Origin: a bacterium
GTDB taxonomy: Bacteria > Vulcanimicrobiota > Vulcanimicrobiia > Vulcanimicrobiales > Vulcanimicrobiaceae
Reading direction: 5' to 3'
DNA length: 64,000 bases
Assembly: GCA_028869385.1 (NCBI GenBank)
Contig: JAGWSR010000061.1
Coordinates: forward strand, 3,526-67,525
Shown: in pieces, positions 43,547-63,070 of the stretch
Layout: each line of letters opens with the position of its first letter
How positions within the stretch are numbered: the stretch's first letter is position 1
Made by a program: the position numbers and the translations under genes
The notes under the pieces: generated by a model
The model's input: only the letters and a program-made list of their open reading frames with translations
Told to the model about the DNA's origin: nothing
Databases searched by the model: none

Positions 43547-43609
43547 GAGGACAGTATAACACTGTAATATCGACTTGGGGAAGCGGGTAGGCGACCCAGT
43601 TCTCTAGCC

Positions 43610-43639
43610 TTGTATTGTGGCGTTTTTCTATAGTATAAT
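43610..43639 (+). promoter_or_regulatory. Sigma70-like promoter upstream of abiEi (TTGTAT-N18-TATAAT), possibly producing a leaderless mRNA
   Basis: TTGTAT at 43610-43615. TATAAT at 43634-43639. ATG 43647 is 8 nt downstream of the -10 element. Confidence 0.35.
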
Positions 43640-43646
43640 GCCATAC

Positions 43647-44279
43647 ATGGCAGTTCAGACGACGGCTGAGGCCGTTCGCCGGTATGTTCGACGCCTTGAG
43701 CCCGGAACGGTGTTCACGCCAGCGGAGCTTGTCCGGGAGCGCGTTGGTTCGGACCGAGCGGTTCGGGAGACGTTGCGACGGCTCGTCGCCGCCGGCACCG
43801 TTCGCCGCTTATCCAAGGGCTACTACGACGTCCCGCGGGTGAATGCGCGGATCGGGGTCCTGAGCCCGACCCCCGAAGCGATCATCGCTGCGCACGCTCG
43901 AAAGACCGGCGCTACGATCGAGCGCCCGGAGTTAGACGCAGCAAACCGGCTCGGACTGACGACACAGGTTGTGGCGCGCCCGATCTATCGGACGAACCTT
44001 TTCCCGCGCGAACTCAAGATCGGCGGCCAGACGATTCGCCTTCAAACGGCCGGTCCGCGTTCGCTTGCGCGCGATACGAACCCGGCAGAACTCGTTATCG
44101 ACGCGCTTCAGGCGATCGGCAAGGCCCATGTTACCGAACGTGAAGTCGCAAAGGTGCGCGAGTTCGTGCACGAGCACGGCCTTGAGAAGAAGCTCCGACA
44201 ACGGGCGCGTCGTGCTCCGTCGTGGATGCTCCCGATTATTGATGACATTCTTTCGGAAGATAACGACGCGGATGGATAG
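43647..44279 (+). CDS. abiEi: AbiEi-family type IV antitoxin / transcriptional regulator
   Basis: ORF 43617..44279. VRRYVRRLEPGTVFTPAELV....VRETLRRLVAAGTVRRLSKGYYDVP is the typical AbiEi N-terminal winged helix. It overlaps the downstream AbiEii gene by 8 nt. GTG 43617 and ATG 43638 are alternative starts. Confidence 0.7.
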   Translation: MAVQTTAEAVRRYVRRLEPGTVFTPAELVRERVGSDRAVRETLRRLVAAGTVRRLSKGYYDVPRVNARIGVLSPTPEAIIAAHARKTGATIERPELDAANRLGLTTQVVARPIYRTNLFPRELKIGGQTIRLQTAGPRSLARDTNPAELVIDALQAIGKAHVTEREVAKVREFVHEHGLEKKLRQRARRAPSWMLPIIDDILSEDNDADG

Positions 44280-45282
44280 ATTTGCTCGCTTCTCCGCTCA
44301 AGAACGTCGAGAGATTATCCAAGAGCGCGCAAGCCAGATGCGCGTTGACTTCACGATTGTGGAAAAGGACTTCTGGGTCTGCTGGACGCTCAAGTCGCTC
44401 TTCACGCTCCCCTCGGGAAATCCGGCGCTGACATTCAAGGGCGGAACGTCTCTTTCGAAAGCTTATGGACTGATTGATAGGTTTTCGGAGGATATCGACG
44501 TTGTTACGGACCCATATTTCTTCATATCAAATGGACTTCTGGATCCCGAAGAACCGAGCATCAGCAATACGCAGCGCGAGAAGCGCATGGAGCAGTTGGA
44601 TGCGGCCTGCGCTGCCTATATAGGGGAGCAGTTGCTCTCTACGTTACGGTCGCAGTTCGCAGCGCGACTAGATGCGAGCGAAGCATGGACCATTGGCGTC
44701 GACCCAACCGATAGAAACACGTTGCTCTTTAGCTATCCCAAGAGTGACCCTCGCATAGCATACGCATACCTTCGAGATGCCGTTAAAATCGAGCTCGGTT
44801 GGCGCGCGAGGAAAGCCCCATCCGAGGATAGGTCGGTTGCGCCATACTTAGCAGAGATACCCATGCTGTTGCAAGAGCCGCAAGTGATCTGCAACGTCCT
44901 TGTCCCCGACAGAACATTTTGGGAAAAGGTAACGGCGCTGCACGCCGAGAGCTTCCAAGCGAAGCAAAAGCAGTTCTTCTCGCGGCACTACTATGACGTG
45001 GCATCAATGCTACAGACGCAAGTTGGCCGGACTGCTTCTCACGATCTTGCTATGCTAGAAGATGTGCGCGCCTTCAAGAGTATCTACTACTACGCCGCAA
45101 CAGCTCATTACGATCTCGCGAAGCCAGGTTCGCTGGTCGTCGTTCCTGGCCCGGACTTGCTTCACAATCTGGCTATCGACTATCGCGACATGCGCCAAAT
45201 GTTCCTGAGCGATCCACCTCCCTTCGATTGGGTGATCGATCAGCTCAGGCCCTTCGAGAGCCAAGTGAATGGCTTGACTTAG
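44272..45282 (+). CDS. abiEii: AbiEii/AbiGii-family nucleotidyltransferase toxin (DUF1814)
   Basis: Inner ATG of ORF 43969..45282. ..EKDFWVCWTLKSLF.....LTFKGGTSLSKAYGLIDRFSEDIDV.. (the GG[TS]xL..RxSxDxD NTase motif). ..FWEKVTALH...SRHYYD. Confidence 0.8.
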   Translation: MDRFARFSAQERREIIQERASQMRVDFTIVEKDFWVCWTLKSLFTLPSGNPALTFKGGTSLSKAYGLIDRFSEDIDVVTDPYFFISNGLLDPEEPSISNTQREKRMEQLDAACAAYIGEQLLSTLRSQFAARLDASEAWTIGVDPTDRNTLLFSYPKSDPRIAYAYLRDAVKIELGWRARKAPSEDRSVAPYLAEIPMLLQEPQVICNVLVPDRTFWEKVTALHAESFQAKQKQFFSRHYYDVASMLQTQVGRTASHDLAMLEDVRAFKSIYYYAATAHYDLAKPGSLVVVPGPDLLHNLAIDYRDMRQMFLSDPPPFDWVIDQLRPFESQVNGLT

Positions 45283-45360
45283 CCCCGCCAGTCTAGATCT
45301 GCGCGAGGGCAACGCCATCTGCGGAAGGGCCGCGACCGCCTATCTTGAAAATCGACTACA

Positions 45361-45410
45361 TCGGGATGGGGCTCCCGAATAACCGCCGCCTCCGCGGCTG
45401 ATGGCTCCTG
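45361..45410 (+). promoter_or_regulatory. Fluoride riboswitch (crcB motif) RS1
   Basis: UCGGGAUGGGGCUCCCGAAUAACCGCCGCCUCCGCGGCUGAUGGCUCCUG. P1 is UCGGG/CCCGA. The pseudoknot pairs GGGGCU with GGCUCC. The conserved AACCGCC and GGCUGAUGGCUCCU blocks are present. It is followed by DUF190-crcB. Confidence 0.85.
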
Positions 45411-45441
45411 TCTATTGCATCGCTACAGACGGGAGTTTATA

Positions 45442-47219: not shown

Positions 47220-47371
47220 GCGTTATGCGGGTGGCTTCTCGCGGGTGCGATACGTCCCCTCTCGCCGCGGCTCGCGGTTGCTGCACCAAGCAGGGCTGAT
47301 GATGACATCGCCACTGCGCGCGGGTATGATGAAGGTGCCTGCGAACCCGATAAAGATCCCGAGGTACACGT

Positions 47372-47722
47372 ATGGAAGGATTCAAGCAAGGCCAATTGCT
47401 CCGCGTGTTCGTCGACGAGCGCGACCTGCATGGTATGCAACCGATGTACACCGCCATCGTGGAGCTTCTTCGAAAGAAGCACATCGCCGGAGCCACGGTC
47501 TTTCGAGGCATCGAGGGCTATGGCCAACACGATCAGATCCATGTCGGGAAGATCTTCTCTTGGGCTCCGAATCTGCCGATCCTCATCGAGGTCGTCGAGG
47601 ACAAGGAAAAGATCGACAGCGTCCTCCCGGACATCGAGAAGATGGTTACCGAAGGGTTCGTAACGATAGAGGCAGCCGAATACTTCCGCATCAGCAAGTC
47701 GAAGTTGCAACCGCACGCGTAG
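47372..47722 (+). CDS. DUF190 (PII-like, COG1993) protein, second copy
   Basis: LLRVFVDERDLHGMQPMYTAIVELLRKKHIAGATVFRGIEGYG.....LPILIEVVED. Confidence 0.75.
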   Translation: MEGFKQGQLLRVFVDERDLHGMQPMYTAIVELLRKKHIAGATVFRGIEGYGQHDQIHVGKIFSWAPNLPILIEVVEDKEKIDSVLPDIEKMVTEGFVTIEAAEYFRISKSKLQPHA

Positions 47723-48358
47723 ATGGGGCCTCCCCGCGAGGTCGCCGCGTTCTGTGACTTCAACGGAACGATCGTCGACCGTGACATGTTGGACTACCTT
47801 GCCTCGACGACGGATAAGCGGACGGAGAGCGCTCCACTTCCGAACGAACGTGGGCACCGAGCCGACATCGCGCGCCGTGCCAAGGCTCTCACGCTTGACC
47901 GCGCCGATGCCGAGCGTCGCATCGAGGACGGCATCCATTTCGATGAGTCGTTTGTGCCGTTCATCGCCGCGTGCGAAGAGGTCGGCATCGAGCTGGTCGT
48001 GCTCACGTCTGGAATCCAGAGTCTCGTCGAGCGCTACCTGCTGCGACGAGGCATACGACTACCCATAATTGGCAACGAGGCCAACATGAATCGTAGCGGA
48101 TGGGTGGTCAAATTTCGTGACGAGAGCGTAGCAGGCATCGATAAGCGCCGTTACGTCGAGCGCGCTATAGAAGCCGGAAAGAAGACGATCGTGATCGGCG
48201 ACGACCGGTCGGACTTCGAAGCGGCCTTGGTCGCTTCTAGCATATTCGCTAAAGCGGGAAGCGAGTTGAAGCGATTTCTCGACGTGCGCGATTTGCCGTA
48301 TCATCCGTTCAGCAGTTTCGCGGAGATCCTCGAACGCTGGCCGCCAAAGACTTGGTGA
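47723..48358 (+). CDS. HAD-IB family phosphatase (MtnX/PSP-like)
   Basis: FCDFNGTIV (DxxGT nucleophile motif). ..VLTSG... ..IGDDRSDFEAA. The ATG immediately follows the DUF190 stop. Confidence 0.65.
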   Translation: MGPPREVAAFCDFNGTIVDRDMLDYLASTTDKRTESAPLPNERGHRADIARRAKALTLDRADAERRIEDGIHFDESFVPFIAACEEVGIELVVLTSGIQSLVERYLLRRGIRLPIIGNEANMNRSGWVVKFRDESVAGIDKRRYVERAIEAGKKTIVIGDDRSDFEAALVASSIFAKAGSELKRFLDVRDLPYHPFSSFAEILERWPPKTW

Positions 48359-48401
48359 CCGAAGGGTAGGGCCGCGTGAAGGGCTAAGAGACAGCCTGAC
48401 A

Positions 48402-48453
48402 CGGGGATGGGGCTCCCCGCGAACCGCCGACTCTGTCGGCTGATGGCTCCTGA
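48402..48453 (+). promoter_or_regulatory. Fluoride riboswitch (crcB motif) RS3
   Basis: CGGGGAUGGGGCUCCCCGCGAACCGCCGACUCUGUCGGCUGAUGGCUCCUGA. It is followed by an anti-SD hairpin (CUCCUGA/UCAGGAG) and ATG 48481. Confidence 0.85.
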
Positions 48454-48480
48454 TTGTTCTCGTCAACGTCAGGAGTAGCC

Positions 48481-49131
48481 ATGCCCTTCGAAGCGACGCG
48501 TCTAGAGACGCTGTTCGCGGAACTCCGCTCCACCGAATACGACGCGCGCAAGCGGCTGCTTGTCGGATTCGCCGAAGATACTGCGAAGATTGAGCGCTTT
48601 TTCGAGCGCCCCATACATAACGCGCAGCAAGAGGCGGAAGATGCCTTGGCGAGTATGGGGTCCATGCTCGAGCCGGAACTCGCAAAGAACCTCCGCCGCG
48701 AGGCATTCCATCGCATCGGCGTCACGTGTGTCAAGGCCGTGCTCGCCAACATTGCACTTCGCCTCCGCGCGCGCTTCAGGATCTACGCACGCGAGATCGC
48801 GGGCGCGGAGACGCGGATAGAGAGCGTCTTGGCATCGATGCGTCTGCCGAGCGCTCGACATTACATCCCGCGAATGTTCCCGATCCAACGTTTGCATCTT
48901 GAACCCGGCAACATCCCCGAACCGCCGGACTGTGCATCCGATGTGGGTGACTGGCTTAAGGCGTTACACGCATCCGCACGCGATCAGATCGAGCGATGTC
49001 TCGATGCCGCCGTCGCTCGCGTGCTCTCGAGCGGAACGGACCGCATGGGCGTCGTCAAGACGAGAATCGATCTCGCGCTCGTCTCGACGTCGCAGAACCG
49101 CCCGACGCGAGGCCGAGCCGAAACGCGATGA
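48481..49131 (+). CDS. Hypothetical helical protein, first gene of the RS3 operon
   Basis: Inner ATG of ORF 48454..49131 with AGGAG 6 nt upstream. No motif recognised. Its stop overlaps the enolase-paralog ATG (ATGA). Confidence 0.5.
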   Translation: MPFEATRLETLFAELRSTEYDARKRLLVGFAEDTAKIERFFERPIHNAQQEAEDALASMGSMLEPELAKNLRREAFHRIGVTCVKAVLANIALRLRARFRIYAREIAGAETRIESVLASMRLPSARHYIPRMFPIQRLHLEPGNIPEPPDCASDVGDWLKALHASARDQIERCLDAAVARVLSSGTDRMGVVKTRIDLALVSTSQNRPTRGRAETR

Positions 49132-50372
49132 AGCCTACGATTGCATTGATAGACGCGCTACAGATCCTCGATTCGCGCGGCTCCCCGACCATCCGCGTCT
49201 TCACGCAGCTCTCTGACGGCTCCGCCGGCATCGCGAGTGCGCCATCCGGGAAGTCGACGGGCAAAGCCGAGAAGCTGGAGCTTCGCGACCGCGGAGGCGC
49301 CTTTTCGGGACGCGGTGTCCTGAATGCCGTGGAAAACGTACGCGGACTCGTCGGTCGCTACTTTTACGGCCGCGACGCGAGCGATCCCGCGGAGATCGAC
49401 CGTGCGCTCGTCGAGCTCGACGGCACGGCGGACCGTTCGAACCTCGGCGCCAACGCGATGGTCGCCGTTTCGATGGCTATTTGGCGCGCCGTTGCGCAAA
49501 GCCGTAGCCAGCCGCTCTGGAAGACGATAGCCCAGGACTGGGATCACAATCTTCCGGTCCCTCTTTTCAACGTCGTCAACGGCGGCGCGCACGCGTCAAA
49601 CGGGCTGCCTTTGCAAGAGTTCATGCTCGTTCCGCACGGCCTGCCCACGACGAGTGAAAGAATCCGATGCGGCGCCGAGGTCTACGCCCAGCTTCGTTCA
49701 GGCTTTGCCGAGGCCGGCATGTCCACAGGCGTCGGTGACGAGGGCGGCTTCATTTTCACCGGCAGACGCGTCGCCGACGCCATCGAGCTGATTATTCGCG
49801 CGATCGAGCGGGGTGGCTACGATGTCGGCGGCGAGGTCTCTCTCGCGATCGACGCTGCGGCGAACGGATTCCGCAACGACGACGGCACCTACAGTCCCGA
49901 ACGCGGCATGAAGCTTACCAGCGAAGAACTCTGCGAGTGGTGGTGCGCGCTCGTCGATAGCGCGCCGGTCGTCATGCTTGAGGATCCATTCCACGAAGAC
50001 GACGCCCGCGGCTGGGGAATGCTCACGCGACGTCTCCAGAGTCACATCACCCTCGTTGGCGACGACATCTTCGTTACCGATCAGGCACGCATACATCGTG
50101 CCGTTCTGGATGGCATCGCGAACGCCGCGCTGCTCAAACCAAACCAGATCGGCACCGTCAGTGAGACTATCGACGCCTGGGCCGAGGCTCGCCGAGGCGG
50201 ATACAAGACTGTCGTCTCGCACCGTTCGGGGGAGACGGCGGACACCTTCATCAGCGACCTCGCTGTCGGAATCGGTAGCGAATACTTGAAATCTGGCGCG
50301 CCGGCGCGCAGCGAGCGCGTGGAGAAATACAATCGGCTACTCGAGATCGAGCGTGAGATGGTGGCGCGGTGA
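49128..50372 (+). CDS. Divergent enolase paralog (riboswitch-controlled)
   Basis: Inner ATG of ORF 48996..50372. ILDSRGSPTI..APSGKSTGKAEKLELRD..GVGDEGGF..LAIDAAANGF..LEDPFHEDD..LVGDDIFVT..LLKPNQIGTVSET..SHRSGETADTFISDLAV..LKSGAPARSERVEKYN. All catalytic and Mg ligand positions are recognisable, but the active-site loop is altered. Confidence 0.85.
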   Translation: MKPTIALIDALQILDSRGSPTIRVFTQLSDGSAGIASAPSGKSTGKAEKLELRDRGGAFSGRGVLNAVENVRGLVGRYFYGRDASDPAEIDRALVELDGTADRSNLGANAMVAVSMAIWRAVAQSRSQPLWKTIAQDWDHNLPVPLFNVVNGGAHASNGLPLQEFMLVPHGLPTTSERIRCGAEVYAQLRSGFAEAGMSTGVGDEGGFIFTGRRVADAIELIIRAIERGGYDVGGEVSLAIDAAANGFRNDDGTYSPERGMKLTSEELCEWWCALVDSAPVVMLEDPFHEDDARGWGMLTRRLQSHITLVGDDIFVTDQARIHRAVLDGIANAALLKPNQIGTVSETIDAWAEARRGGYKTVVSHRSGETADTFISDLAVGIGSEYLKSGAPARSERVEKYNRLLEIEREMVAR

Positions 50373-52027
50373 TCGCAGTACGTATGGGCGATAGTAAACT
50401 GTTCGTGGGACTCGCGACGCTTGCGCGGCGCTATGGAGACGATGTGCTGCGCGGAGACATCGACTTCATCATCGATCAGTCATTGCATGATACGGCCTCG
50501 GTCGCCGTGATCGGGCAGTTCAAACGCGGCAAGAGCACCCTGTTGAATGCGCTGATCGGCGAGGACATTCTCCCAACAGGTCGGCTTCCGCTGACGGGCG
50601 TTACCACGCGTATTCTGCACGGCGACCGTGGAGCAGTCGTGCACTTCGCGGGCGGCCGAACGGAACGGGTTCCCCTGGACGATCTCAAGCTCTACGTCAC
50701 CGAAGAGCACAACCCGCGGAATCTCCGAGGCGTGACGCACGTCGACGTGACGCTGCCGCTCCCGATGCTTCTACATATCGTGTTCATCGATACTCCGGGC
50801 ATCGGGTCGACGTTCGCCCACAACACGCAGACCGCGTATGAAGCAAGCGAACGCATCGATCTCGCTCTTTTCATCACCGGCCCCGAGCCGCCGATAACGG
50901 GCGATGAGATCGCGTTCCTACGGCAGGCCCGAGAGCGCGCCGATCGCGTCATCGTCATCGTCGCTAAGATCGACCTGGTGCCGGGAAGCGAGGCGGAGAT
51001 ACTCGACTTCACACACCATGCGATCAAGGAAGCTGTGGGAACGGCCCTTCCCATCTATCCGCTAGACGCAACGCGCCCGGACGCGCGCATTGCAGCGCTG
51101 CGCGAAGTCATCACCGCCAGCATAGCGGAGGGCGAGGGAAATCTCGCCCGGCGTTCGCTCGCACGTCGCGCCCTCCGTGCGGCGGCGACCATTCGCCGCA
51201 GCATCGCGCTACAGCGAGCGGCGGCGCTCCTTCCAGCGTCGGAGCGCGAGCAGGCCCGCGTACGCTTCGGAGAGATCGCTGACGAGATCGCGGAGCGGGG
51301 CGCCGACCTCATTCGCGCGATCGAACAATTCCCAACAGAAGAGCTCGTATCCGTTGATGCGTTGCTCGAGACGCTTGCCCAAGAGGCCGAGACGGCCGTT
51401 TCGAGTGAGATTGAGCGCTTCGTTACGCTCGACGCCGCTGTCGGCGAGCGCGCACTGTATGAACGCATCGCTGAGTGCGAAACGCAGTGGTCAGCGCACG
51501 TGTCGTCGGCATTGGAGAAGCGGATCGTTAGGCGTCACTCTGCCACGCTACGCCTGGTCACCGAACTCGAACAGCGCTTCGCAGAAGCGGGAAGCGCTGC
51601 GCTGGGATTACGGTGGAATCCGGAGGACGAAGTCGATCGCGCCGAATTCGGAGTGCGGGAGGCCGCGACGCGTATGAACGGCCCGGTCCCGACGACGGGT
51701 TTGGAACTCTTTACCGGAGGGTTGATCGCGACGCTACCCGGATCGCTACGGGCGCATGTGCTACGTAAGCGCTATACGACGCTGATCGCCGAACTTCTCG
51801 ACCGCTCGAAGGGCCGCGTCCGATCGGCCGCTGTCCGATATCTCATGGAATGGCGTCTAGCGAACGTCGGTTTCGTTCGCGAGCGTCTTCTTTCGGCGCG
51901 CCGCATCGTCGAAGACGCCTTCGATAGCGCGGCGGAGACGGGCGACGAAACGGATCTCACGGCGGCTCTGGAGCGGATGAACGGCGACGAACGGATTCTC
52001 GATGCGGTTGTGGCGGCGTTCCCGTAG
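50369..52027 (+). CDS. Dynamin-like GTPase (bacterial DLP) 1
   Basis: GTG overlaps the enolase-paralog stop (GTGA). G1 is VIGQFKRGKSTLLNAL. G2 is LPLTGVTT. G3 is FIDTPGIGS. G4-like is VAKIDL. The C-terminal half is long and helical. Confidence 0.75.
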   Translation: MIAVRMGDSKLFVGLATLARRYGDDVLRGDIDFIIDQSLHDTASVAVIGQFKRGKSTLLNALIGEDILPTGRLPLTGVTTRILHGDRGAVVHFAGGRTERVPLDDLKLYVTEEHNPRNLRGVTHVDVTLPLPMLLHIVFIDTPGIGSTFAHNTQTAYEASERIDLALFITGPEPPITGDEIAFLRQARERADRVIVIVAKIDLVPGSEAEILDFTHHAIKEAVGTALPIYPLDATRPDARIAALREVITASIAEGEGNLARRSLARRALRAAATIRRSIALQRAAALLPASEREQARVRFGEIADEIAERGADLIRAIEQFPTEELVSVDALLETLAQEAETAVSSEIERFVTLDAAVGERALYERIAECETQWSAHVSSALEKRIVRRHSATLRLVTELEQRFAEAGSAALGLRWNPEDEVDRAEFGVREAATRMNGPVPTTGLELFTGGLIATLPGSLRAHVLRKRYTTLIAELLDRSKGRVRSAAVRYLMEWRLANVGFVRERLLSARRIVEDAFDSAAETGDETDLTAALERMNGDERILDAVVAAFP

Positions 52028-52733
52028 TCGTCTCTCCGAAGCGCTCGACGCGGTGTGCGGAAAGGACCGCGCGCGGCGCGATGTCCTCGCGCGAAGCGTC
52101 GGCTCTCCCTTCATCGAGAGCGACGTCGCGGCGGCGCTGCTCGGCGAAGATCTCTGGTATCCTCCGCTCGTCGAATTTAGGAAGTACCTGGAAACAGCGG
52201 TCGAGCGACCGCATCTCTGGGACTTCCCGTTTAGCGAGTCAGGACGTTGGCCGAGCTCCACGTGGCGGGCGCTCTCGCTGCACACGCGCATCGCCCGAGC
52301 GCGCATTGCCTCACCGGCTCACGAGTCAGATTTCGTTTTTGCCGCTCTTGCATTCGGAATGCGTGAGCGCGAACTTCGAACCGCATTTAAGGAACTGCTT
52401 GCGATCGGACTCTGCCGTGAGATCTGTCGTGGGATCTATCGCGTGTATGCTATCGCTCCTTTGGCGGCGCTCGATCATGATCTTCATCTTGTCAGAGTCA
52501 TTGCCCATTGGCTGGAGATGCTCGCGCAGGCCGATCACGTTGCTGAAGATCGGGCGCCTACTGGCTATGAGGTTCACGGTTACGTCGAAGCCTGCACCTG
52601 CTGCAAGAAGCGGTGGGGTATCCGTCCACGTGCGCCGGATTGGGTACCGCCGTTTCACCCGGGCTGCCGCTGTTTCGCGCAGCCGCGATTTGCGAGTCGA
52701 ATACCACCAATCAACATGGAGGAATCTCGGTGA
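52002..52733 (+). CDS. Hypothetical protein with C-terminal Phage_Mu_F/SPP1 gp7-like motif
   Basis: ORF 52002..52733. The C-terminal ..WVPPFHPGCRCFAQP resembles the PP.H.NCRC signature I recall from MuF-like head-morphogenesis and polymorphic-toxin domains. It overlaps DLP1 by 26 nt. Confidence 0.5.
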   Translation: MRLWRRSRSRLSEALDAVCGKDRARRDVLARSVGSPFIESDVAAALLGEDLWYPPLVEFRKYLETAVERPHLWDFPFSESGRWPSSTWRALSLHTRIARARIASPAHESDFVFAALAFGMRERELRTAFKELLAIGLCREICRGIYRVYAIAPLAALDHDLHLVRVIAHWLEMLAQADHVAEDRAPTGYEVHGYVEACTCCKKRWGIRPRAPDWVPPFHPGCRCFAQPRFASRIPPINMEESR

Positions 52734-52888
52734 CCGTCCCAGGCAAGGAACATCCAGACTACTGGCTTTACGAGCAGCTGCAGACGATTCAGATGCTGCT
52801 TCTCGCGATGGCCCTCGAACAGGAAGGCCAAGAACAAGAATCGTCGGATCTTCTCGACGAAGCGCGTAAGAGGATAATCGGAGCATGA
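52730..52888 (+). CDS. Small acidic ORF (52 aa)
   Basis: GTG overlaps the upstream stop (GTGA) and its stop overlaps the downstream ATG (ATGA). VTVPGKEHPDYWLYEQLQTIQMLLLAMALEQEGQEQESSDLLDEARKRIIGA. Confidence 0.3.
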   Translation: MTVPGKEHPDYWLYEQLQTIQMLLLAMALEQEGQEQESSDLLDEARKRIIGA

Positions 52889-53967
52889 GAGGGCGTTACG
52901 TACCACTCGTGATGCTGACCCTCGTCGCACTCGCCGGAGCGGCGGTACCATCGCGCGATGCACTGATGCCGCGCTACGCCCATATCTTCGTGATCATGGA
53001 AGAGAACAAGGACTACGGCGAGATCGTTGGCAGCCCTGATGCGCCGGCGATTACGGGCCTCGCGAAAACCTACGGCGTCGCGACCGAGTTCTATGCCGAG
53101 ACGCACCCGAGCGAGCCGAACTACGTAGCGCTCGTTGGCGGCTACACCTACGGTATTCGAGACGACGACGCATTCTATTGCCGACCAAACGATGCCCGTC
53201 CGCTCTGCCCCCACGCCGAGCGCTCTGGCTATGTGAATCACACCATCGATGAGCCGAATCTCGCGACGCAGCTCGAGTCCGAGCATCTCACTTGGAAGAA
53301 CTACAACGAATCGCTTCCGGAACCGGGATCGCTCGTCGTCATCGCGACGGACGAGAAGGCAAAGGACGTTCCCGCTGCTCTTCCCGTGTACGCCTCAAAG
53401 CACTCGGGCTTCGTGAACTTCGCTTCCGTGCAGAATGATCCGAATCGCAAGACCCGCCTGGTCGGGTTCGATGCCCTTCGGCAAGATCTCGCATCCGGCA
53501 ACGTTCCAAGTTTTTCGTTCATCATTCCGAACTTGTGCGATGAGATGCATGGCGCGGGCGACGAGGATGGTGCGCCCGAAGACTGTAGCTACTCCCATCT
53601 CCATAAGCTCGTCTGGCGGGGCGACGAGAACGTCCACGCCCTCGTCACGGCCATCATGGCTTCCCCCGTGTGGAAGGCGTCGTCGAATGCCGCCATTGTC
53701 ATCACGTTCGACGAAGACGACCACGGCGGCAAGGCGCATTGCTGTGGCGCGGACACGAATGACCCCGCGAATTCCGGCGGCGGGCACATCGCGACGATCG
53801 TGGTGACGAATCATGGACCGCGCGGCGTTGTCGATCCAACACCATACAGCCACTACTCGCTGCTGCGGACGATCGAGGACGCCTTCGGCATTCACGAATA
53901 TCTCCGCCTCGCGGGCGCGCCGGGTGTGGTTCCGATGACACCGCTCTTTGCAACGCAGAGCCGATAA
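52885..53967 (+). CDS. Secreted phosphoesterase-family protein (AcpA/phospholipase C-like)
   Basis: Signal peptide: ..VMLTLVALAGAAVP. HIFVIMEENKDYGEIVG... ..SEPNYVALVGG.. ..CDEMHG... The order is consistent with the PF04185-type phosphoesterase fold. This is a moderate-confidence call from memory. Confidence 0.6.
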   Translation: MRGRYVPLVMLTLVALAGAAVPSRDALMPRYAHIFVIMEENKDYGEIVGSPDAPAITGLAKTYGVATEFYAETHPSEPNYVALVGGYTYGIRDDDAFYCRPNDARPLCPHAERSGYVNHTIDEPNLATQLESEHLTWKNYNESLPEPGSLVVIATDEKAKDVPAALPVYASKHSGFVNFASVQNDPNRKTRLVGFDALRQDLASGNVPSFSFIIPNLCDEMHGAGDEDGAPEDCSYSHLHKLVWRGDENVHALVTAIMASPVWKASSNAAIVITFDEDDHGGKAHCCGADTNDPANSGGGHIATIVVTNHGPRGVVDPTPYSHYSLLRTIEDAFGIHEYLRLAGAPGVVPMTPLFATQSR

Positions 53968-55196
53968 TGAACCCGATCGAGCTTTCCTCGCACAAGCGAA
54001 AGCGCAATCGTTCGCTCGCGTTCGTCTTGCTTATCGGCGTTCTGAGTCTTTTCGCGGACTTCGCGTATGAGGGAGCGCGCAGCGTCACGGGGCCGTTCTT
54101 GGCGTTGCTGGGCGCAGGCGCAGTCGTCATCAGCAGTGTGGGCGGCTTTGGTGAGCTCCTCGGTTACGGGTTGCGGCTCGTGTCGGGCCCGCTGGCCGAA
54201 CGCACGGGCCGCTATTGGCTGATTACGATCGTTGGCTACGTCATCCAGCTTACGTCCGTTCCACTCCTCGCTTTCGCGCGCACCTGGCCGGAGGCTGCAC
54301 TCCTGATCCTCCTCGAGCGCACGGGGCGCGCCATCCGCAATCCACCGCGCGACGCGATGCTTTCGTTCGCTGCGAAGGAGATGGGTTACGGGTGGGGATT
54401 CGGCGTGCATGAGGCACTCGATCAGTGCGGTGCGCTCATCGGTCCCCTCGTCGTCGCCGCGATGCTAGCTGCGCGGCATTCTTATAATATGGCGTTCGCT
54501 GCATTGGCGATCCCGGTGCTCATTGTGTTCGCGCTTCTCGTGACGAGCCGCATCCTCTATCCAAAGCCGCAGGATCTAGAAGCCGAGGTCCTCGACATCC
54601 GCGGCTCCGGGCTGCCCAAGGTCTACTGGATCTATCTCGTCGGGGCTGCGTTCGTAGCCGCCGGCTTCGCCGATTTCTCGCTGATGGCGTTCCATCTGCA
54701 GCAGGGTGTCCCGCTACAGCCCTCCATGGTGCCGATCTTCTACGCCATCGCCATGGCCGTGAGCGGTATTTGTTCGTTGGTCTTTGGGAAGCTCTTCGAT
54801 CGATACGGCATGATCGTCTTGCTGCCGCTGACGCTCGTCGGCGCGGCCTTCGCTCCGCTCGTCTTCCTCGGCGGCTTTTGGGCATCGCTCCTTGGCATCG
54901 CCATTTGGGGCCTCGGGATGGGGGTCCACGAGTCGATCATCCCCGCTGCCGTTGCACATATGGTTCCTCCTTCGCGGAGGCCGTCGAGCTACGGCATTTT
55001 CACCGGTGTCTATGGCATCGCGTGGTTTCTCGGAAGCGTCGTGATCGGTCTGCTGTACGCGAAGAACATTGGCGCGCTCGTGGCGTTCTGCGTCCTCACG
55101 CAACTCGCTGCGATCCCCATCTTCATTTGGGTCGTTCGGCGCCTCCCGCTAAAGCACTCTGATGCACAACTACCGCCATTCGGGAGGGAAAACTAA
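53967..55196 (+). CDS. Major facilitator superfamily transporter
   Basis: About 12 TM helices. ..LAERTGRY.. loop motif. TAATG overlap with the upstream gene. Confidence 0.75.
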   Translation: MNPIELSSHKRKRNRSLAFVLLIGVLSLFADFAYEGARSVTGPFLALLGAGAVVISSVGGFGELLGYGLRLVSGPLAERTGRYWLITIVGYVIQLTSVPLLAFARTWPEAALLILLERTGRAIRNPPRDAMLSFAAKEMGYGWGFGVHEALDQCGALIGPLVVAAMLAARHSYNMAFAALAIPVLIVFALLVTSRILYPKPQDLEAEVLDIRGSGLPKVYWIYLVGAAFVAAGFADFSLMAFHLQQGVPLQPSMVPIFYAIAMAVSGICSLVFGKLFDRYGMIVLLPLTLVGAAFAPLVFLGGFWASLLGIAIWGLGMGVHESIIPAAVAHMVPPSRRPSSYGIFTGVYGIAWFLGSVVIGLLYAKNIGALVAFCVLTQLAAIPIFIWVVRRLPLKHSDAQLPPFGREN

Positions 55197-56494
55197 TGCT
55201 TACTCGCCACGACGCTGTCGCAATCTCGAAGGAGATACTGAGTCTGGTCTTCGGGGAAGGTTATACTTCGAGATTCTCCGTCCAATTGTGGGATGGCAAT
55301 GTTCTCGGAAACCCCGACGTCGCGCCCTTCACACTTCTACTCAACGATCCGAGTACGTTACGGGCAGCGCTACGACCACCGATAGATTTGAACGCTGGAA
55401 GCGCGTTCGCGTCCGGTTTGTTTGATTGCCGAGGTGATCTCGAAGCGGCCGTCGACGAAATACTCAACGCGATGAACCGACTATCACCGACGACCGTTCT
55501 GCGTGTCGGACTGCTGTCACGACGCCTGCCGAAGGCGTTAAGCCCGCAGTTGCAAGGCGCGCGCCTGGAGGGGAAACAGCATTCGCAAAAGCGCGACCGT
55601 AAAGCCGTCTCGTTCCACTACGATCAGCCAGTGCCGTTTTACGGATCGTTCCTCGATCCCGAACTCGTTTATTCATGCGCATACTTCGACGATGGCGTAG
55701 CGGACCTTGATGAGGCGCAAACTCGAAAGATCGATTACACCCTCGCAAAGGTGCGGCTGGCGCCGGGTGAGCGGCTGCTCGACATCGGGTGTGGGTGGGG
55801 CGCTCTTGTCATCCGCGCCGCGCAGAAGTTCGGCGCATCGGCATTGGGAATCACGCTCAGCACGACGCAATATGAAGAAGCGCGGCGGAGAATCGAACAG
55901 GCCGGCGTCGGGCACTTAGCCCACGTCGAACTTCGCGACTATCGCGACCTACCGAAACAGTCCTTTGACAAGTGCGTGAGCATCGGCATGTTCGAGCATG
56001 TCGGAGCGCGGATGCTGCCGACGTACTTTCGAACGGTTTTTGACCTGTTGAAGCCGGGCGGTTTGTTCCTCAATCATGGAATCGCGGAACAGACCCCAGG
56101 GAGAAGGGGCGGGAAGGTCAGCGGCTTCATGAAGCGATTCGTCTTCCCCGACGGGGAACTCGTCGCGGTATCGCGCGCACTTCTCGATGCGGAACGGTCC
56201 GGATTCGAAGTACGCGACGTCGAGAGCCTCCGCGAGCACTATGCCGAGACGCTGCGCCACTGGGTCCGCAATCTCGAACGGAACCGCGATATGGCCATAG
56301 CCATCGGCGGCGAGCAGACGTACCGAGTCTGGCGCCTCTATATGGCCGGCAGCGCGCAAGGCTTCCGATCCGGGAGGCTAGGCGTCTTCCAGTCACTCCT
56401 GGCCAGGCCGACGCCGTCGGGAGGCGTACCGATTCCCTCAACGAGACGTGATCTCTATGCCACGAACGCCCTCATAGGTCAATCAGCTTTTTAG
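55196..56494 (+). CDS. Cyclopropane-fatty-acyl-phospholipid synthase-family SAM methyltransferase
   Basis: SFHYDQPVPFYGSFLDPELVYSCAYF.. LLDIGCGWGALVIRAA.. SIGMFEHVG... HWVRNLE. TAATG overlap with the MFS gene. Confidence 0.8.
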   Translation: MLTRHDAVAISKEILSLVFGEGYTSRFSVQLWDGNVLGNPDVAPFTLLLNDPSTLRAALRPPIDLNAGSAFASGLFDCRGDLEAAVDEILNAMNRLSPTTVLRVGLLSRRLPKALSPQLQGARLEGKQHSQKRDRKAVSFHYDQPVPFYGSFLDPELVYSCAYFDDGVADLDEAQTRKIDYTLAKVRLAPGERLLDIGCGWGALVIRAAQKFGASALGITLSTTQYEEARRRIEQAGVGHLAHVELRDYRDLPKQSFDKCVSIGMFEHVGARMLPTYFRTVFDLLKPGGLFLNHGIAEQTPGRRGGKVSGFMKRFVFPDGELVAVSRALLDAERSGFEVRDVESLREHYAETLRHWVRNLERNRDMAIAIGGEQTYRVWRLYMAGSAQGFRSGRLGVFQSLLARPTPSGGVPIPSTRRDLYATNALIGQSAF

Positions 56495-57997
56495 GAACTG
56501 CGCCGCTTCGCCGAAGACCCGATAATAGATGTCCTCGCCGTAGCTCGTTGGGAGCGGTTCCTCTTCCGCCAGCCTAAAGGAACGCTCCCCGTCGTCGCTT
56601 CGCGGTGCGCGCAGAAACAGCGTAGTGTCCTTGCGTTCCACCCAGAGGCGATGCGCGAATTCGTAGAGATGGGTGACGAAGGCGACCTCGACGCCAGAAT
56701 CCACGAGTGCTTCCGCAATCTGGCGTGCGATCTCCGACCCTTCGCGGTCATTGGTCGCAGCGAAGGACTCATTGAAAAGGACGAATGCGTTAGGGGACAG
56801 CTCAGCGACCATGTCGTTCATGCGCTTCAACTCCTCGTCGAACTTCCCGCTCTCCATGCTCGCATCTTCCTCGCGCTTGTAGTGCGTAAACACCCCCGAC
56901 GAAAGAGAGGCGCGGTAGGAGTTCGCGGGAACGAACATTCCGCATTCCATCATGAGCTGCGCAATGCCGAGGCTTCGGAGGAACGTCGACTTCCCTCCGC
57001 GATTCGCTCCGGTTATCACGATCATCGATTTGCCGTCAGCGGCGGCATCGTTTCCGACGATACGTTCTTTTGCAAGCAAAGAAAGACACGCATCATAGAG
57101 GTTGGCGCCATCTCGGATCCTCGCGCCGGCCGGGGATATGGCGGGGAAACACGTCGGCTCGCCCTTTGCCGTAAGCTGTTCCTGTAGGTTGACGCAGCCG
57201 AGATAGAAGGCGAGTTCCGAACGCAACGTCGTGAAGAACGCCAAGATATGCTCAGTCGACTGCCCGAGCGCGTCGGCGACGAGATTGATTCCGCGGTCTC
57301 CGAGCTCGGATAGCGCACGCATCCCGCTCTCGTCGCGAGGAGGGATATGATAGGTCAGCCCATCCTCCGCCGGCGGCAGTATGCGCTCAATCCAGTTCTT
57401 GTTCGGCCGCACGAACTCGCGCAGGACGTAATCCGTGCCGTGGTTTCCCTTTCCGAGCCGCACGCTCATCAGGATCCCATCCGGGAACTCCACTGTTTTC
57501 AGCAACCCGTCGACCTTCGCGAGATAGTCGTCTTCGAGTTCGGTCTCTAGCATCGAGAAGAATCGCCTAAATCCGTCGGACGCAAACCAGTCCGCATGCG
57601 CCTCGGCAATCAGGCGCATCCGCTTCAGGATTGCAAGGAACATCGGTAAGATATCGCGCCCGCGCCGTAAGATCGTCGAGGGGTATCGCGATGTCAAGCC
57701 CCAAAACGACCGCCGCTCTTCCGTGATGGCCTCCTCGGCGAGGGCATATATCTCGCGGACGATCTCCCGATGGGCAAGACAATCGCGCAGCACGGCTTGA
57801 CGATAAAGGAGTGCGTCGACGTCGCGGAGCCCGCCCAGTACCACCTTCGGCGCGACCGTCGGGATCACGCGGTCCTCGCCGGCCATGGCGTCGAAGAGCG
57901 TTTGGAGTCCGAGGTCCTGGATAAGGTCGTCCGCGTTCTTCGGCAGCTTCGTGTCCCAGTCGAAGTCCCGCTCGCGATGAAGCAGAAACGCCTTCAC
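56483..57997 (-). CDS. MutS-related ABC-type ATPase (domain III/V only, no mismatch-binding or Smr domain) B
   Basis: GTG start overlaps the upstream stop (TAGTG). ..MIVITGANRGGKSTFLRSLG..SGKFDEELKRMN..LFNESFAATNDREG..FVTHLYEF. Confidence 0.75.
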   Translation of the reverse strand: MKAFLLHRERDFDWDTKLPKNADDLIQDLGLQTLFDAMAGEDRVIPTVAPKVVLGGLRDVDALLYRQAVLRDCLAHREIVREIYALAEEAITEERRSFWGLTSRYPSTILRRGRDILPMFLAILKRMRLIAEAHADWFASDGFRRFFSMLETELEDDYLAKVDGLLKTVEFPDGILMSVRLGKGNHGTDYVLREFVRPNKNWIERILPPAEDGLTYHIPPRDESGMRALSELGDRGINLVADALGQSTEHILAFFTTLRSELAFYLGCVNLQEQLTAKGEPTCFPAISPAGARIRDGANLYDACLSLLAKERIVGNDAAADGKSMIVITGANRGGKSTFLRSLGIAQLMMECGMFVPANSYRASLSSGVFTHYKREEDASMESGKFDEELKRMNDMVAELSPNAFVLFNESFAATNDREGSEIARQIAEALVDSGVEVAFVTHLYEFAHRLWVERKDTTLFLRAPRSDDGERSFRLAEEEPLPTSYGEDIYYRVFGEAAQFLKS

Positions 57998-59541
57998 TAC
58001 CGCTCCACTTTCTTGAAACGATCGTGCAGTCGATCGTAAGTAAGGCCGTAGCGCTCGGCGAGAGAGAGCGCGTAGGCCAGACCATCAGCGGGTCTTCGTT
58101 CCAATCGGAACGTCCGTTTGCCCGGATCGACCGCATCCACAACGCTCACCATGCTAACGGTCTTCTCGCTCATGGAGGCCAGTTCGTCGATAAACGTCAC
58201 GCAGACGCAGAGCGCGTCGAGTGCGAGTATCCGTTCCATGATGGCCCGGGCGAGCACGCTTGCGTCGCGAGCGGTCGTCGATGCGAATATTTCGTTGAGG
58301 ATGATGATGCTGTTGGAAGTTGCGTGTTCCAGAATATCGTGAATCCGCAGAATGTCGTCTTCGAGCTTGCCGCGCCCCGAAGCCGGATCTTCCTGCCGTT
58401 CGAAGTGAGTGAAGAGTTCGTCGAAGAGAAACGTGGTTGCTTCGCTTCCTGCTACGCGGCATCCGAGCGCCGCGAGATAGTGGAGTTGGCCGAACGTTCG
58501 CGCCAGCGTCGTTTTGCCACCCTGATTGGGGCCAGAGATGACGAGGACGCGCTCAAGTCCGCTTAGCTCGAAATCGTTGGTGACGACGGGCCCATTGGTA
58601 GCTACGATCCGGTGCGCTAGCGCCATGTCGTACGTCTCCCGCGCGCGTACGGTTTTACTGGCGGGGTCGACCCGGGGATAGCACGTTCGGAGTTCCGCTG
58701 CCTCGAAAATCTTCGCATAGTCCGAGGCGGCGAGATAGAATTGGATCTCGCGATCGAACCGCGCGACCGTTTCGTCGATGAAGTCCGCGTGACGTTCGGC
58801 GAAGCGATCGAGCTCGGTGAAAAGCTCGGGATAGAGCTGAGCCACGAACTCGAGGACCTTTTCCTCGATGTGATTCAATGCGCCGCGGTCGTAGAACGTC
58901 ACGAGGTAGCTCTTCGTAGCGCCCTGCCGAAACCTCGAAAAGGTCTCGAGCACGGCTTCGACCAGATCGCGCTCCTCGCCGCAGGGCCGAACGCTCACTC
59001 GCTCTCCGCCTACGAGCACGTCGTACGTAACTCCCGAGAGCCCCATCCGTAACGAGGCCACGTCGTCCGCCAGCCGGAGGAAGGTTTCAGACGTCCGATA
59101 TTGTTCGAGGAAGTCGCGGAATGCAACGAGCCCATGTGACCGAACCGACGGACGGCGAAGGCCTTCGTTTAGGTTCCCGATGGCCGCGCAATACGTTTCG
59201 GCGGCATCGAGACGCCATCTCTCCCGTTCATATCGGTAGCGCAGCTTTGATTCGGTTTCCAACGCCGCCCGCACCGCGCGCATCGCGTCTGCAAAGGTGT
59301 CCACGCACTTGCGCGCCTCGTCGTTCTCTAGGTCGCGGGATATCTCGTGGCGATAACCGATGGCATCAACGTCCCCGAGTGGTACGCGAAACAGCGGTTT
59401 GAGATCGTACGCTTCGCGTCCCGCAAACATCGCATCGGCGATCTGGTCGAGATAGAGGTCCGCGAAGAACGGCGGATCCACCGCCCGCTCCGTAGTCCTT
59501 TGGTCGCCTCGAGCCGGGAAGAGAAGGCTATTGAATGTCAT
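57997..59541 (-). CDS. MutS-related ABC-type ATPase (domain III/V only) A
   Basis: Inner ATG 59541 of ORF 57997..59622, overlapping the DLP2 stop (ATGA). ..VLVISGPNQGGKTTLARTFG..RGKLEDDILRIH..ILNEIFASTTARDA..VTFIDELA. Confidence 0.75.
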   Translation of the reverse strand: MTFNSLLFPARGDQRTTERAVDPPFFADLYLDQIADAMFAGREAYDLKPLFRVPLGDVDAIGYRHEISRDLENDEARKCVDTFADAMRAVRAALETESKLRYRYERERWRLDAAETYCAAIGNLNEGLRRPSVRSHGLVAFRDFLEQYRTSETFLRLADDVASLRMGLSGVTYDVLVGGERVSVRPCGEERDLVEAVLETFSRFRQGATKSYLVTFYDRGALNHIEEKVLEFVAQLYPELFTELDRFAERHADFIDETVARFDREIQFYLAASDYAKIFEAAELRTCYPRVDPASKTVRARETYDMALAHRIVATNGPVVTNDFELSGLERVLVISGPNQGGKTTLARTFGQLHYLAALGCRVAGSEATTFLFDELFTHFERQEDPASGRGKLEDDILRIHDILEHATSNSIIILNEIFASTTARDASVLARAIMERILALDALCVCVTFIDELASMSEKTVSMVSVVDAVDPGKRTFRLERRPADGLAYALSLAERYGLTYDRLHDRFKKVER

Positions 59542-61135: not shown

Positions 61136-61573
61136 TTATGCCTCGTCTTCCGAGAGGTCCCGGCGAATCGGTTGGGTATCGAAGTATTCATCCTCTACAG
61201 TCTCATAGGCCCGGAGGCGCTCCTTGAGGGTGCCAATCCGCACCTGGAGTTGACGTGCACTCTGCATCGTCAATTCCAGCATGCCGTATGCGCCCGCGTT
61301 TCTCATCCGCTCGGTCTTCAAATCCCGCATGCACTCGTAGAGCTTGAAGTGCTCGACCGAATACTGCTGCTCCAGTGCATAGAGCATCGATCCGCGCTCG
61401 GCGTGCTCTCGCTGGAGTGCATGGAGTCGTTCCAGCGTCTCTTCGTCGGCGGGACGCATAGCTTGCTTGCAATCGCTGGTTCGAACGGGCGCGGGCCGGC
61501 GTCGCACAAACGAGTATGCGGCGAGGACAATCGTCGTCAACACGTTTACGCCAGCGTGGAAGGTTTTGGCCAT
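61136..61573 (-). CDS. Hypothetical N-terminally anchored coiled-coil protein
   Basis: Inner ATG 61573 of ORF 61136..62197. TM helix VNVLTTIVLAAYSFV, then a heptad-like helical region. Its stop lies 5 nt before the DLP2 ATG. Confidence 0.4.
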   Translation of the reverse strand: MAKTFHAGVNVLTTIVLAAYSFVRRRPAPVRTSDCKQAMRPADEETLERLHALQREHAERGSMLYALEQQYSVEHFKLYECMRDLKTERMRNAGAYGMLELTMQSARQLQVRIGTLKERLRAYETVEDEYFDTQPIRRDLSEDEA

Positions 61574-62274: not shown

Positions 62275-62299
62275 GATGCTTTCTCCTACTCGTATCGAA

Positions 62300-62350: not shown

Positions 62351-62356
62351 CATGAA

Positions 62357-62830: not shown

Positions 62831-62838
62831 GAGACCGA

Positions 62839-63037: not shown

Positions 63038-63070
63038 ACAATGACCGCGTCTTGTTGTCAGGAGACCCTG

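Follow-up and report, generated by a model that had tools for sequence, protein, structure and literature searches.

Dynamin-like GTPases and MutS-related ATPases in a probable fluoride-response island of a Vulcanimicrobiaceae bacterium

The sequence considered here, referred to as the window, is a stretch of 64,000 nucleotides (nt) from a bacterium of the family Vulcanimicrobiaceae (GenBank assembly GCA_028869385.1, contig JAGWSR010000061.1, positions 3,526 to 67,525), and attention is centred on positions 48,402 to 56,494, where eight open reading frames (ORFs) follow a fluoride riboswitch, RS3. The reading preferred here, to which a probability of roughly 0.7 is given, is that the region forms one arm of a fluoride-response island, consisting of a head of four genes switched by RS3 (g1, an enolase gene, the gene of the dynamin-like GTPase DLP1, and g4) and a variable tail. 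By genomic association DLP1, g1 and g4, together with DLP2, gX and a MutS-like pair encoded by a facing unit, constitute a conserved nucleoside triphosphatase (NTPase) module of the fluoride regulon, and the dynamin-like protein (DLP) family is, again by genomic association, a fluoride-riboswitch family across phyla. The features of the region are as follows:

48394-48459, plus strand: RS3, fluoride riboswitch aptamer (RF01734, 49.5 bits against a gathering score of 34, E 1e-10)
48445-48480, plus strand: hairpin of the RS3 expression platform, present in the minimum-free-energy and centroid folds
48481-49131, plus strand: g1, 216 amino acids (aa), all-helical, partner of DLP1-type genes in Eremiobacterota
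49128-50372, plus strand: enolase (Enolase_N E 2.5e-40, Enolase_C E 3.8e-86; TIGR01060 461 bits against a cut-off of 300)
50369-52027, plus strand: DLP1, cysteine-poor bacterial dynamin-like GTPase (Dynamin_N 77.5 bits against 27)
52002-52733, plus strand: g4, 243 aa, with a C-terminal CxxC...PPFHPGCRC motif, no Pfam match and 58 homologues
52730-52888, plus strand: g5, putative 52-aa ORF bridging g4 and the phosphoesterase gene by GTGA and ATGA overlaps, with the Shine-Dalgarno (SD) sequence GGAGG 6 nt upstream
52885-53967, plus strand: phosphoesterase of the acid phosphatase / phospholipase C family (PF04185, 106 bits)
53967-55196, plus strand: major facilitator superfamily (MFS) transporter (MFS_1, 85 bits)
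55196-56494, plus strand: methyltransferase of the cyclopropane fatty acid (CFA) synthase family (CMAS, PF02353, 295 bits against 27; Methyltransf_25, 61 bits)

The eight ORFs are all in frame, with one stop each, and their junctions are exactly as an earlier note on this DNA had described them, which leaves a string without intergenic space: ATGA between g1 and enolase, GTGA between enolase and DLP1, 26 nt shared by DLP1 and g4, GTGA between g4 and g5, ATGA between g5 and the phosphoesterase, and TAATG both between phosphoesterase and MFS and between MFS and CFA synthase. The SD sequence is weak or absent at the g1/enolase, DLP1/g4 and phosphoesterase/MFS junctions, and it is good ahead of g5 and the CFA synthase gene. 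The earlier note had named internal promoters or terminators as what would split the cluster; promoter-like and terminator-like matches in the operon region are not more frequent than in shuffled sequence. Besides, a permissive Rfam scan (E<=1) found no further fluoride aptamer within 48460-56494.

RS3 covers the full RF01734 model (positions 1-64) in the Rfam scan of the window, and it was aligned with 50 other aptamers. It lies upstream of g1 on the same strand, its 3' end at 48459 being followed by the g1 start codon ATG at 48481, with the SD sequence AGGAG at 48471-48475, 5 nt ahead of that codon. In the hairpin listed above, the 3' strand of RS3, GGCUCCUGA, pairs with UCAGGAG(UA)GCC, an arm that includes the SD sequence of g1. 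The hairpin is kept in the orthologous leaders of four relatives (loci L001-L004), where in L002 a U-A pair has become U-G. The CUCC of the RS3 3' strand is, according to the aptamer consensus, the part that forms the pseudoknot. Since the same strand pairs with the SD sequence, ligand binding and SD pairing should exclude each other.

Some fluoride riboswitches regulate translation and not termination, and RS3 would be an ON switch of this kind, acting by sequestration of the SD sequence; the fold and its conservation were computed here, while the switching is deduced from the known architecture of fluoride aptamers. Without fluoride, the CUCCUGA of the RS3 3' strand would pair with the SD sequence of g1 and block the ribosome-binding site; when fluoride is present, the pseudoknot of the aptamer would retain CUCCUGA and leave the SD sequence free. 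Given the seven stop/start overlaps, translation of g1 would be expected to run on into the downstream genes, and polarity or decay should silence any mRNA that stays untranslated. The aptamer, the sequestration of the SD sequence and the string without gaps give the regulatory side of this reading good support. Like known translational riboswitches that sequester the SD sequence, RS3 has a pseudoknot 3' strand complementary to that sequence, so the ligand should free the ribosome-binding site. The leaders of L001-L004 differ by a U-run 3' of the hairpin, so that the hairpin there also resembles a terminator; the window copy has lost this U-run.

The association with fluoride riboswitches is seen in relatives of the operon. 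The 18 good genome loci found with g4, all of them in metagenome-assembled genomes (MAGs) of Eremiobacterota type, hold 40 Rfam fluoride aptamers; every one has DLP1-type genes, and nearly all have MutS-like pairs, a NUDIX gene and g1. The set that recurs in these islands is g4, DLP1-type, MutSa, MutSb, NUDIX and g1, often with DUF190, HAD, metallophosphoesterase and gX. The order riboswitch-g1-(enolase)-DLP1-g4 is preserved in close relatives, as is the overlap of DLP1 and g4, and in distant relatives riboswitch-DUF190-g4-MutSa-MutSb faces riboswitch-NUDIX-DLP-g1. In the closest relatives, L030 (MutSb 73% identical) and L031 (g4 71% identical), the operon ends at g4, directly against MutSb; the operon of the window can therefore be divided into a conserved four-gene head and a lineage-specific tail.

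The DLP family was followed beyond this clade in metagenomes by means of an alignment of 22 DLPs and the P-loop pattern G[QR]F[KN]RGK[ST][ST], which yielded 79 best loci with GC contents of 0.32-0.69. A custom covariance model was built from 51 Rfam-validated aptamers; its RNAalifold structure caught the pseudoknot and not P1 and P3, and its hits were validated with Rfam. It gave 88 matches at E<1e-3, with an aptamer in 61 of the 79 loci; 41 loci have it on the same strand as the DLP gene, with its end no more than 300 nt ahead of the estimated start of that gene. In a subset of 15 loci, some of them with GC contents of 0.32-0.36, 17 of 18 custom-model matches also passed the threshold of Rfam itself, one weak match, in L048, being left unconfirmed. 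Loci with such low GC contents cannot belong to Eremiobacterota. The neighbours of the DLP gene in the 79 loci comprise enolase (19), MFS (22, about eight of them at 43% identity or more), DUF190 (12) and CrcB (11), and MutS-like pairs occur in five. Two loci, L066 and L102, are clean riboswitch-DLP-enolase operons; in the former, a remnant of 134 aa of a MutSb C-terminus (2276-2680) stands between the DLP and enolase genes. The earlier note had seen no fluoride logic in the DLP and in g4, which it called MuF-like; this view is to be abandoned, as both are conserved core of the operon and the DLP family is riboswitch-linked across phyla.

A cross-phylum check made with MutSb, in which six loci of other lineages were scanned with Rfam, points in the same direction. 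The riboswitch stands directly before the MutS-like pair in four of the six (L025, L026, L028 and L029) and heads the longer string Na/H antiporter-Usp-MFS-MutS-MutS in L024. Orthologues of the MFS of the window, 39-61% identical, accompany the MutS-like pairs in five of the six (Moorella, Ktedonobacteraceae, Desulfosporosinus, L028 and L029). Moorella glycerini has the order riboswitch-Na/H antiporter-Usp-MFS-MutS-MutS, a short Dynamin_N gene immediately preceded by a riboswitch, and further riboswitches before DUF190 and CrcB; Desulfosporosinus sp. PR has a riboswitch-MutS pair, MFS, enolase and DUF190. In L029 a riboswitch lies directly upstream of a protein of 608 aa with Dynamin_N and DUF6062, and a DLP2-type gene is found nearby in L025 and L028. 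The islands of L025, L028 and L029 also hold genes for MoxR-type AAA+, DUF58, DUF4129, stand-alone DUF6062, PP2C and HEAT_2 proteins, some of them directly behind aptamers, such as the one before MoxR (L029, 1905-1968) and the one before HEAT_2 (L025, 6640-6703).

Regarding the DLPs themselves, DLP1 carries the motifs G1 GQFKRGKS, G3 DTPG and G4 AKID, and these columns do not vary among 22 family members. A profile of the family aligns with the bacterial dynamin-like protein (BDLP) of Nostoc (2j68) at E 3e-28 over profile positions 21-408, past the G domain, and with IniA at E 1.2e-26 up to position 391; the best PDB matches of the DLPs are the C. jejuni DLP, IniA and Nostoc BDLP. On these sequence comparisons the window DLPs are classed as true BDLP relatives. 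They share with Nostoc BDLP, M. smegmatis IniA (6j72) and C. jejuni DLP1/DLP2 (5owv) a G domain with the G1, G3 and G4 motifs, a size of 530-590 aa and the frequent occurrence of two genes per locus, and they may also have a helical region behind the G domain. On the other hand, they differ from these in standing under a fluoride riboswitch, in having no detectable paddle or transmembrane segment, in the convergent and not tandem arrangement of the pair, in the cysteine-rich, DUF6062-like half of DLP2, and in their partners, namely enolase, MutS-like ATPases and g1/g4. DLP1 and DLP2 are 38% identical, in the G domain only. The C-terminal half of DLP2 is the cysteine-rich, DUF6062-like one, with two CxxC pairs conserved in the DLP2 subtype, and a conserved, moderately hydrophobic PTTGLEL...LP loop is found in the C-terminal half of the family. 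The presence of two DLPs in facing fluoride-controlled units, put forward in the earlier note, is supported, and a second DLP in the flanks of about 13 of the 79 related loci fits its idea that such proteins work as pairs.

Two further genes precede RS3 on the same strand:

47372-47722, plus strand: DUF190b, second DUF190 gene and first of the co-directional string (PF02641, 115.6 bits)
47723-48358, plus strand: HAD-family hydrolase (PF12710, E 2.6e-11), ending 36 nt before RS3

The stop codon of DUF190b abuts the start codon of the HAD gene, DUF190b has no riboswitch of its own on the plus strand, and a sigma-70-like site lies upstream of it, at 47302-47330. The order DUF190-HAD-riboswitch-g1 is also found in L001 and L004, and the HAD gene directly precedes the orthologous riboswitch in L001-L004 and L033. 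With these two genes upstream, RS3 is internal to a string of ten co-directional genes. The description of a single riboswitch heading the operon thus holds as regards the riboswitch itself, but "heading" is too strong.

Several points weigh against the reading of the region as an RS3-switched arm of a fluoride island. RS3 lies only 36 nt behind a co-directional gene, and transcription may consequently begin upstream and be constitutive, RS3 then gating translation only. The whole RS3 leader does not fold more stably than shuffled sequence (z -0.48). If g5 were not translated, the chain of coupling would break ahead of the tail, and the CFA synthase and the phosphoesterase recur in no related locus, bar one distant CMAS gene (L026). 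The 79 DLP loci are the best tblastn matches to DLP1 and no random sample of DLPs, the custom covariance model was trained mainly on Eremiobacterota aptamers, and co-transcription, coupling and induction by fluoride are each predicted from the sequence. The gap of 36 nt, together with the position of the sole strong sigma-70-like site upstream of DUF190b, the loss in the window of the U-run seen in L001-L004 and the good SD sequences before g5 and the CFA synthase gene, would suit an arrangement in which RS3 gates the translation of g1 only and the downstream genes are translated through their own ribosome-binding sites from a constitutive transcript running from DUF190b and HAD to the CFA synthase gene. 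This is held to be unlikely: the SD sequence is poor at three junctions, as coupled re-initiation would predict, the terminator-like hairpin of the relatives implies control over the entire downstream string, and in other phyla DLP and enolase genes stand directly behind the aptamer. Still less is to be said for a tail (g5, phosphoesterase, MFS and CFA synthase) recently inserted and transcribed from a promoter of its own within coding sequence, with only g1, enolase, DLP1 and g4 under the riboswitch. In its favour, the tail is missing in both closest relatives, L001 and L004 carry an AbiE toxin-antitoxin pair in its place, no Eremiobacterota or metagenome DLP locus contains the CFA synthase or the phosphoesterase, and g5 has no homologue. 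Against it, the tail junctions all overlap, without intergenic space or a promoter-like match; MFS orthologues come directly after g4 in L001, L002, L008 and L034 and are found with MutS-like pairs under riboswitch control in three phyla or more; and Desulfosporosinus has a CMAS gene directly behind a fluoride riboswitch.

What the DLP module does within the preferred reading, that is, within a fluoride-response island, is a separate matter. By analogy with BDLP, it is tentatively suggested that the module may maintain the cytoplasmic membrane under hydrogen fluoride (HF) or acid stress. To our knowledge, the characterised bacterial DLPs act on membranes, CrfC being the sole exception known to us, and the profile alignments to Nostoc BDLP and IniA extend well past the G domain, with the PTTGLEL...LP loop conserved. 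However, no transmembrane segment outside the G domain and no clearly hydrophobic paddle could be seen in DLP1 or DLP2, which leaves the membrane role without support from the sequence and counts in favour of its main rival, itself rather doubtful, namely that the DLPs are cytosolic and not membrane-acting, being replaced when magnesium or aluminium fluoride traps GTPases, or serving enolase or another damaged target. Metal fluorides mimic the gamma-phosphate in GTPases, and other NTPases, such as MutS-like pairs and MoxR AAA+, also stand behind fluoride riboswitches. The commonest identifiable neighbours of the DLPs are enolase and MFS-type genes, CrcB being rarer, although the link between DLP and enolase seen here is one of gene association. 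Further out, and improbable, is the proposal that the cross-phylum DLPs are dedicated fluoride effectors working with the Asn-Glu MutS-like pair, the MFS and the adaptors g1, g4 and gX; in its boldest form the GTPase cycle itself would read fluoride, trapping of GDP-MgF3 driving DLP assembly, so that the protein would be both sensor and effector and would protect the membrane or rescue enolase. The DLP, MutS-like and g4 genes might also be anti-phage defence or mobile-element cargo merely lying beside fluoride genes, in view of weak PADLOC matches of the DLPs to LeoA and LeoBC, mostly limited to parts of the G domain, and of the integrative mobile element and the AbiE pairs that flank the islands or lie within them. 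This is very improbable: 41 of the 79 loci have an aptamer directly upstream of the DLP gene, MutS-like pairs are preceded by aptamers in several phyla, mobile-element genes do not stand beside the island in relatives, and the PADLOC matches are low-scoring and partial, for which reason the defence-system reading was rejected.

In relation to published fluoride regulons, the known riboswitch partners include CrcB, enolase, inorganic pyrophosphatase, HAD, 'mutS'-annotated genes and membrane subunits of formate-hydrogenlyase type, according to PMC2864571 (Weinberg 2010), PMC7266159 and PMC11139923; the content of the regulon described by Baker in 2012 was taken as summarised in the latter two. 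The window shares with RF01734 regulons the aptamer class and, as partners, CrcB, DUF190, enolase, pyrophosphatase, HAD, 'mutS' and hydrogenlyase-type genes, DUF190 being a partner that the three papers do not name. It differs in having six aptamers in about 18 kb and in the position of RS3 between cistrons and not at the start of the transcript. DLPs, g1, g4, gX, CFA synthase, NUDIX and metallophosphoesterases go unnamed in those papers, and the supplements of Weinberg 2010 yielded nothing on these genes. A full-text search found no paper joining 'fluoride riboswitch' with 'dynamin' or 'dynamin-like', the gene lists of Baker 2012 lying outside its reach so that an earlier mention is possible; matches of 'fluoride riboswitch' with 'GTPase' or 'cyclopropane' looked unrelated by title and abstract, and one of them, PMC9971707, was unrelated in content. 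As far as the searchable literature goes, the regulon membership of DLP, g1, g4 and gX and the architecture of the island are new, whereas the type of system is already known.

Many genes of fluoride-riboswitch regulons lack an assigned function, and the 'MutS' genes have been unexplained since 2010. The DLP family, which is often the first gene behind the switch and often accompanied by enolase, and with which the MFS, the MutS-like pair and several uncharacterised proteins co-travel, provides a concrete and testable gene set for fluoride defences beyond export, and it places bacterial dynamins, few of whose natural triggers have been identified, in a fresh physiological setting. Fluoride tolerance matters in oral microbiology and in the engineering of microbes for making or degrading organofluorines (PMC11139923).

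The enolase of the head is an established fluoride-riboswitch partner (PMC11139923), which bears out the earlier remark that it is the classic fluoride target. Its motifs GDEGGF, IED, GDD, KxNQIGT and SHRSGET are unchanged across 12 aligned sequences. The loop SGASTG, which closes over the second metal ion of the enzyme, reads SGKSTG in the window; the island enolases of the clade (window, L001, L003 and L004) share SGKSTG and carry GGFIF or GGFVY where GGFAPN is canonical and EDPxHEDD where EDGLAEDD is canonical, while riboswitch-linked enolases of other phyla are canonical. One may speculate that these second-shell changes alter the sensitivity to fluoride. The association of enolase with the switch is established, and its benefit here may lie in an extra supply or a variant of the fluoride-poisoned enzyme.

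The first gene, g1, is taken as 216 aa long, against 158 aa in the GenBank call, because the lengths of its homologues (202-216 aa, found in related loci) and the SD sequence agree with that start. It matches nothing in Pfam (E<=10), NCBIfam, PHROG or PADLOC. Its AlphaFold2 model, with a predicted local distance difference test (pLDDT) score of 84, has four long helices, and Foldseek returned generic helical bundles, the best natural fold matches being the stalks of IniA and MxA at a TM-score of 0.35, a suggestive but not significant similarity. The conserved homologues of g1 and g4 indicate that both are real genes.

The homologues of g4 (n=58) are all unnamed and come mostly from MAGs of Eremiobacterota type; the family is small, with 15 clusters at E<1e-10 among 1.84 billion representatives, and the residues of CxxC...PPFHPGCRC are invariant in 28 sequences. 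Fusions of DUF190 with g4 and of g4 with HEAT repeats (P0187) exist. The designation of g4 as a MuF-motif protein does not stand beyond the motif itself. With phage MuF / SPP1 gp7 proteins (PF04233), g4 shares the C-terminal PP-H-x-x-CRC motif (PPFHPGCRC), whereas its N-terminal 180 residues, a helical and winged-helix-like part, are unrelated. It has no Pfam match at E<=10, and the PHROG minor-head families reach only E 0.14 and 0.26. The profile search against PDB sequences gave only chance matches (talin and DHFR). For the AlphaFold2 model (pLDDT 88) no fold match is significant: Foldseek found only weak winged-helix matches in the PDB (E>=0.058), and in BFVD nearly all matches are MuF-like minor capsid proteins at a non-significant E 0.018-0.2 and TM-score of about 0.27. 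Distant profile matches of g4 cover only the C-terminal 50-70 residues, and a distant relative, P0203, reaches 28.1 bits with PF04233 in the stretch that aligns, the cut-off being 29.6. Moreover, 18 of 18 good loci in the g4 genome scan are riboswitch-rich chromosomal fluoride islands without phage context, and g4 was therefore rejected as a MuF protein.

In the tail, g5 has no homologue or family match (Pfam E<=10, PHROGs, related loci) and is for that reason unverified as a gene. The phosphoesterase is hydrophobic at residues 3-24 of its N-terminus; it is lineage-specific and probably secreted. The MFS is 67-73% identical to the MFS of L001, L002 and L008; a link to the P. putida BenE-I was considered and rejected, the paper on BenE-I being unrelated to the MFS of the window. 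The CFA synthase scores 350 bits with the NCBIfam model CfaB, below its cut-off of 650, and hence is not an exact CfaB equivalog. This gene and that of the phosphoesterase are absent from 23 of 23 genome loci and from 79 of 79 metagenome loci. In Desulfosporosinus sp. PR a CMAS gene (L026 12098-13273), whose product is 37% identical to the CFA synthase of the window, follows a riboswitch (11909-11968) at a distance of 130 nt, and 4HBT and AMP-binding genes come after it. The idea that cyclopropanation lowers the entry of HF is plausible and finds one independent recurrence in this gene, but such a gene is rare and is absent from relatives. The MFS, CFA synthase and secreted phosphoesterase may be add-ons for transport, membrane barrier and phosphate supply, respectively; the label of envelope remodelling, given to the operon genes beforehand, is not supported for any of the products. 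An AbiEi/AbiEii-like pair stands between the plus-strand operon and MutSb in L001 (11926-13571) and L004 (11213-12864). As this pair occupies the slot of the CFA synthase, the convergent junction is a site of variable cargo.

The facing unit reads NUDIX, aptamer, metallophosphoesterase, gX, DLP2, MutSa and MutSb, again with overlapping junctions:

62833-62898, minus strand: RS4, fluoride riboswitch ahead of the NUDIX gene (RF01734, 50.8 bits)
62357-62830, minus strand: NUDIX hydrolase (PF00293, E 6.6e-15)
62294-62358, minus strand: RS4b, aptamer between the NUDIX and metallophosphoesterase genes (RF01734, 31.5 bits against 34, E 2.5e-5)
61546-62310, minus strand: calcineurin-like metallophosphoesterase (Metallophos_2, E 1e-17)
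61136-61459, minus strand: gX, small coiled-coil ORF upstream of DLP2, 62% identical to a called gene of 142 aa in L030
59538-61130, minus strand: DLP2, dynamin-like GTPase (Dynamin_N 81.7 bits; DUF6062 E 8e-4)
57997-59541, minus strand: MutSa, MutS-related ATPase (MutS_V)
56483-57997, minus strand: MutSb, MutS-related ATPase of 504 aa, last gene of the unit (MutS_V only)

The unit had been described as the RS4 operon, and RS4 is indeed real; the unit nevertheless holds a second aptamer, RS4b, sub-threshold, before its phosphoesterase gene, and the orthologous position passes the Rfam threshold in L001-L004 and L008. The stop of the CFA synthase gene at 56494 and the end of the convergent MutSb ORF at 56483 give the overlap of 12 nt between the two units that had been claimed. 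No terminator-like hairpin is found at these overlapping stop codons (56483-56494), and if the same ligand induces both convergent units, they should transcribe into each other. The ORF gX occurs in 14 Eremiobacterota loci and has no Pfam match; a fluoride riboswitch is followed first by gX and then by g1 in L009, L010 and L012. The start of MutSa is probably ATG 59541, in an ATGA overlap with the stop of DLP2, and not TTG 59622, from which the long ORF runs, because cross-phylum matches begin at residue 28 of that ORF. MutSb has more than 8000 homologues, with about 55% identity in Firmicutes and Chloroflexota, and the Walker B motif has Asn-Glu and not Asp-Glu in 109 of 120 of these across phyla; the same applies to MutSa. 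Matches in the PDB cover residues 263-452 only. Mismatch-repair MutS was rejected as an identity for either protein, domains I-IV being undetected and MutS_V alone present, and both are MutS-related ATPases. With MutS2, MutS domain V and KamC-type ATPases they share an ABC-type domain V with Walker A; unlike these they have neither mismatch-binding nor Smr domains, always form a heterologous pair and carry the Asn-Glu Walker B.

Four fluoride riboswitches of the window pass the curated Rfam threshold; with the two that fall just below it, the window has six aptamers in about 18 kb, none of them inside the operon. Besides those already described they are:

45353-45417: RS1, ahead of DUF190 and CrcB
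47228-47168: RS2, ahead of pyrophosphatase
62969-63044, plus strand: sub-threshold aptamer (33.5 bits against 34), divergent from RS4 and ahead of a HycD/NuoH-like gene

The HycD/NuoH-like gene occupies 63071-63973 (PF00146), and the position orthologous to its aptamer is above threshold in relatives. The pyrophosphatase, HAD, NUDIX, metallophosphoesterase and PF04185 phosphoesterase are all metal-dependent phosphohydrolases, a class of enzymes discussed as fluoride-inhibited and defensively up-regulated in reviews that include PMC11139923.

An integrative mobile element (30379-45282) lies to the left of the island, and comprises:

two tRNA genes and a ParA-like gene
30678-31904: tyrosine integrase
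34975-37041: type IV coupling protein
39250-42441: MobA/TraA relaxase-helicase
43617-45282: AbiEi/AbiEii pair

A megablast of the operon against a plasmid database gave no match, and genes of the element were not found beside the island in relatives, with the exception of one integrase homologue in L010. At the tRNA genes the GC content of the window passes from 0.67 to about 0.60.

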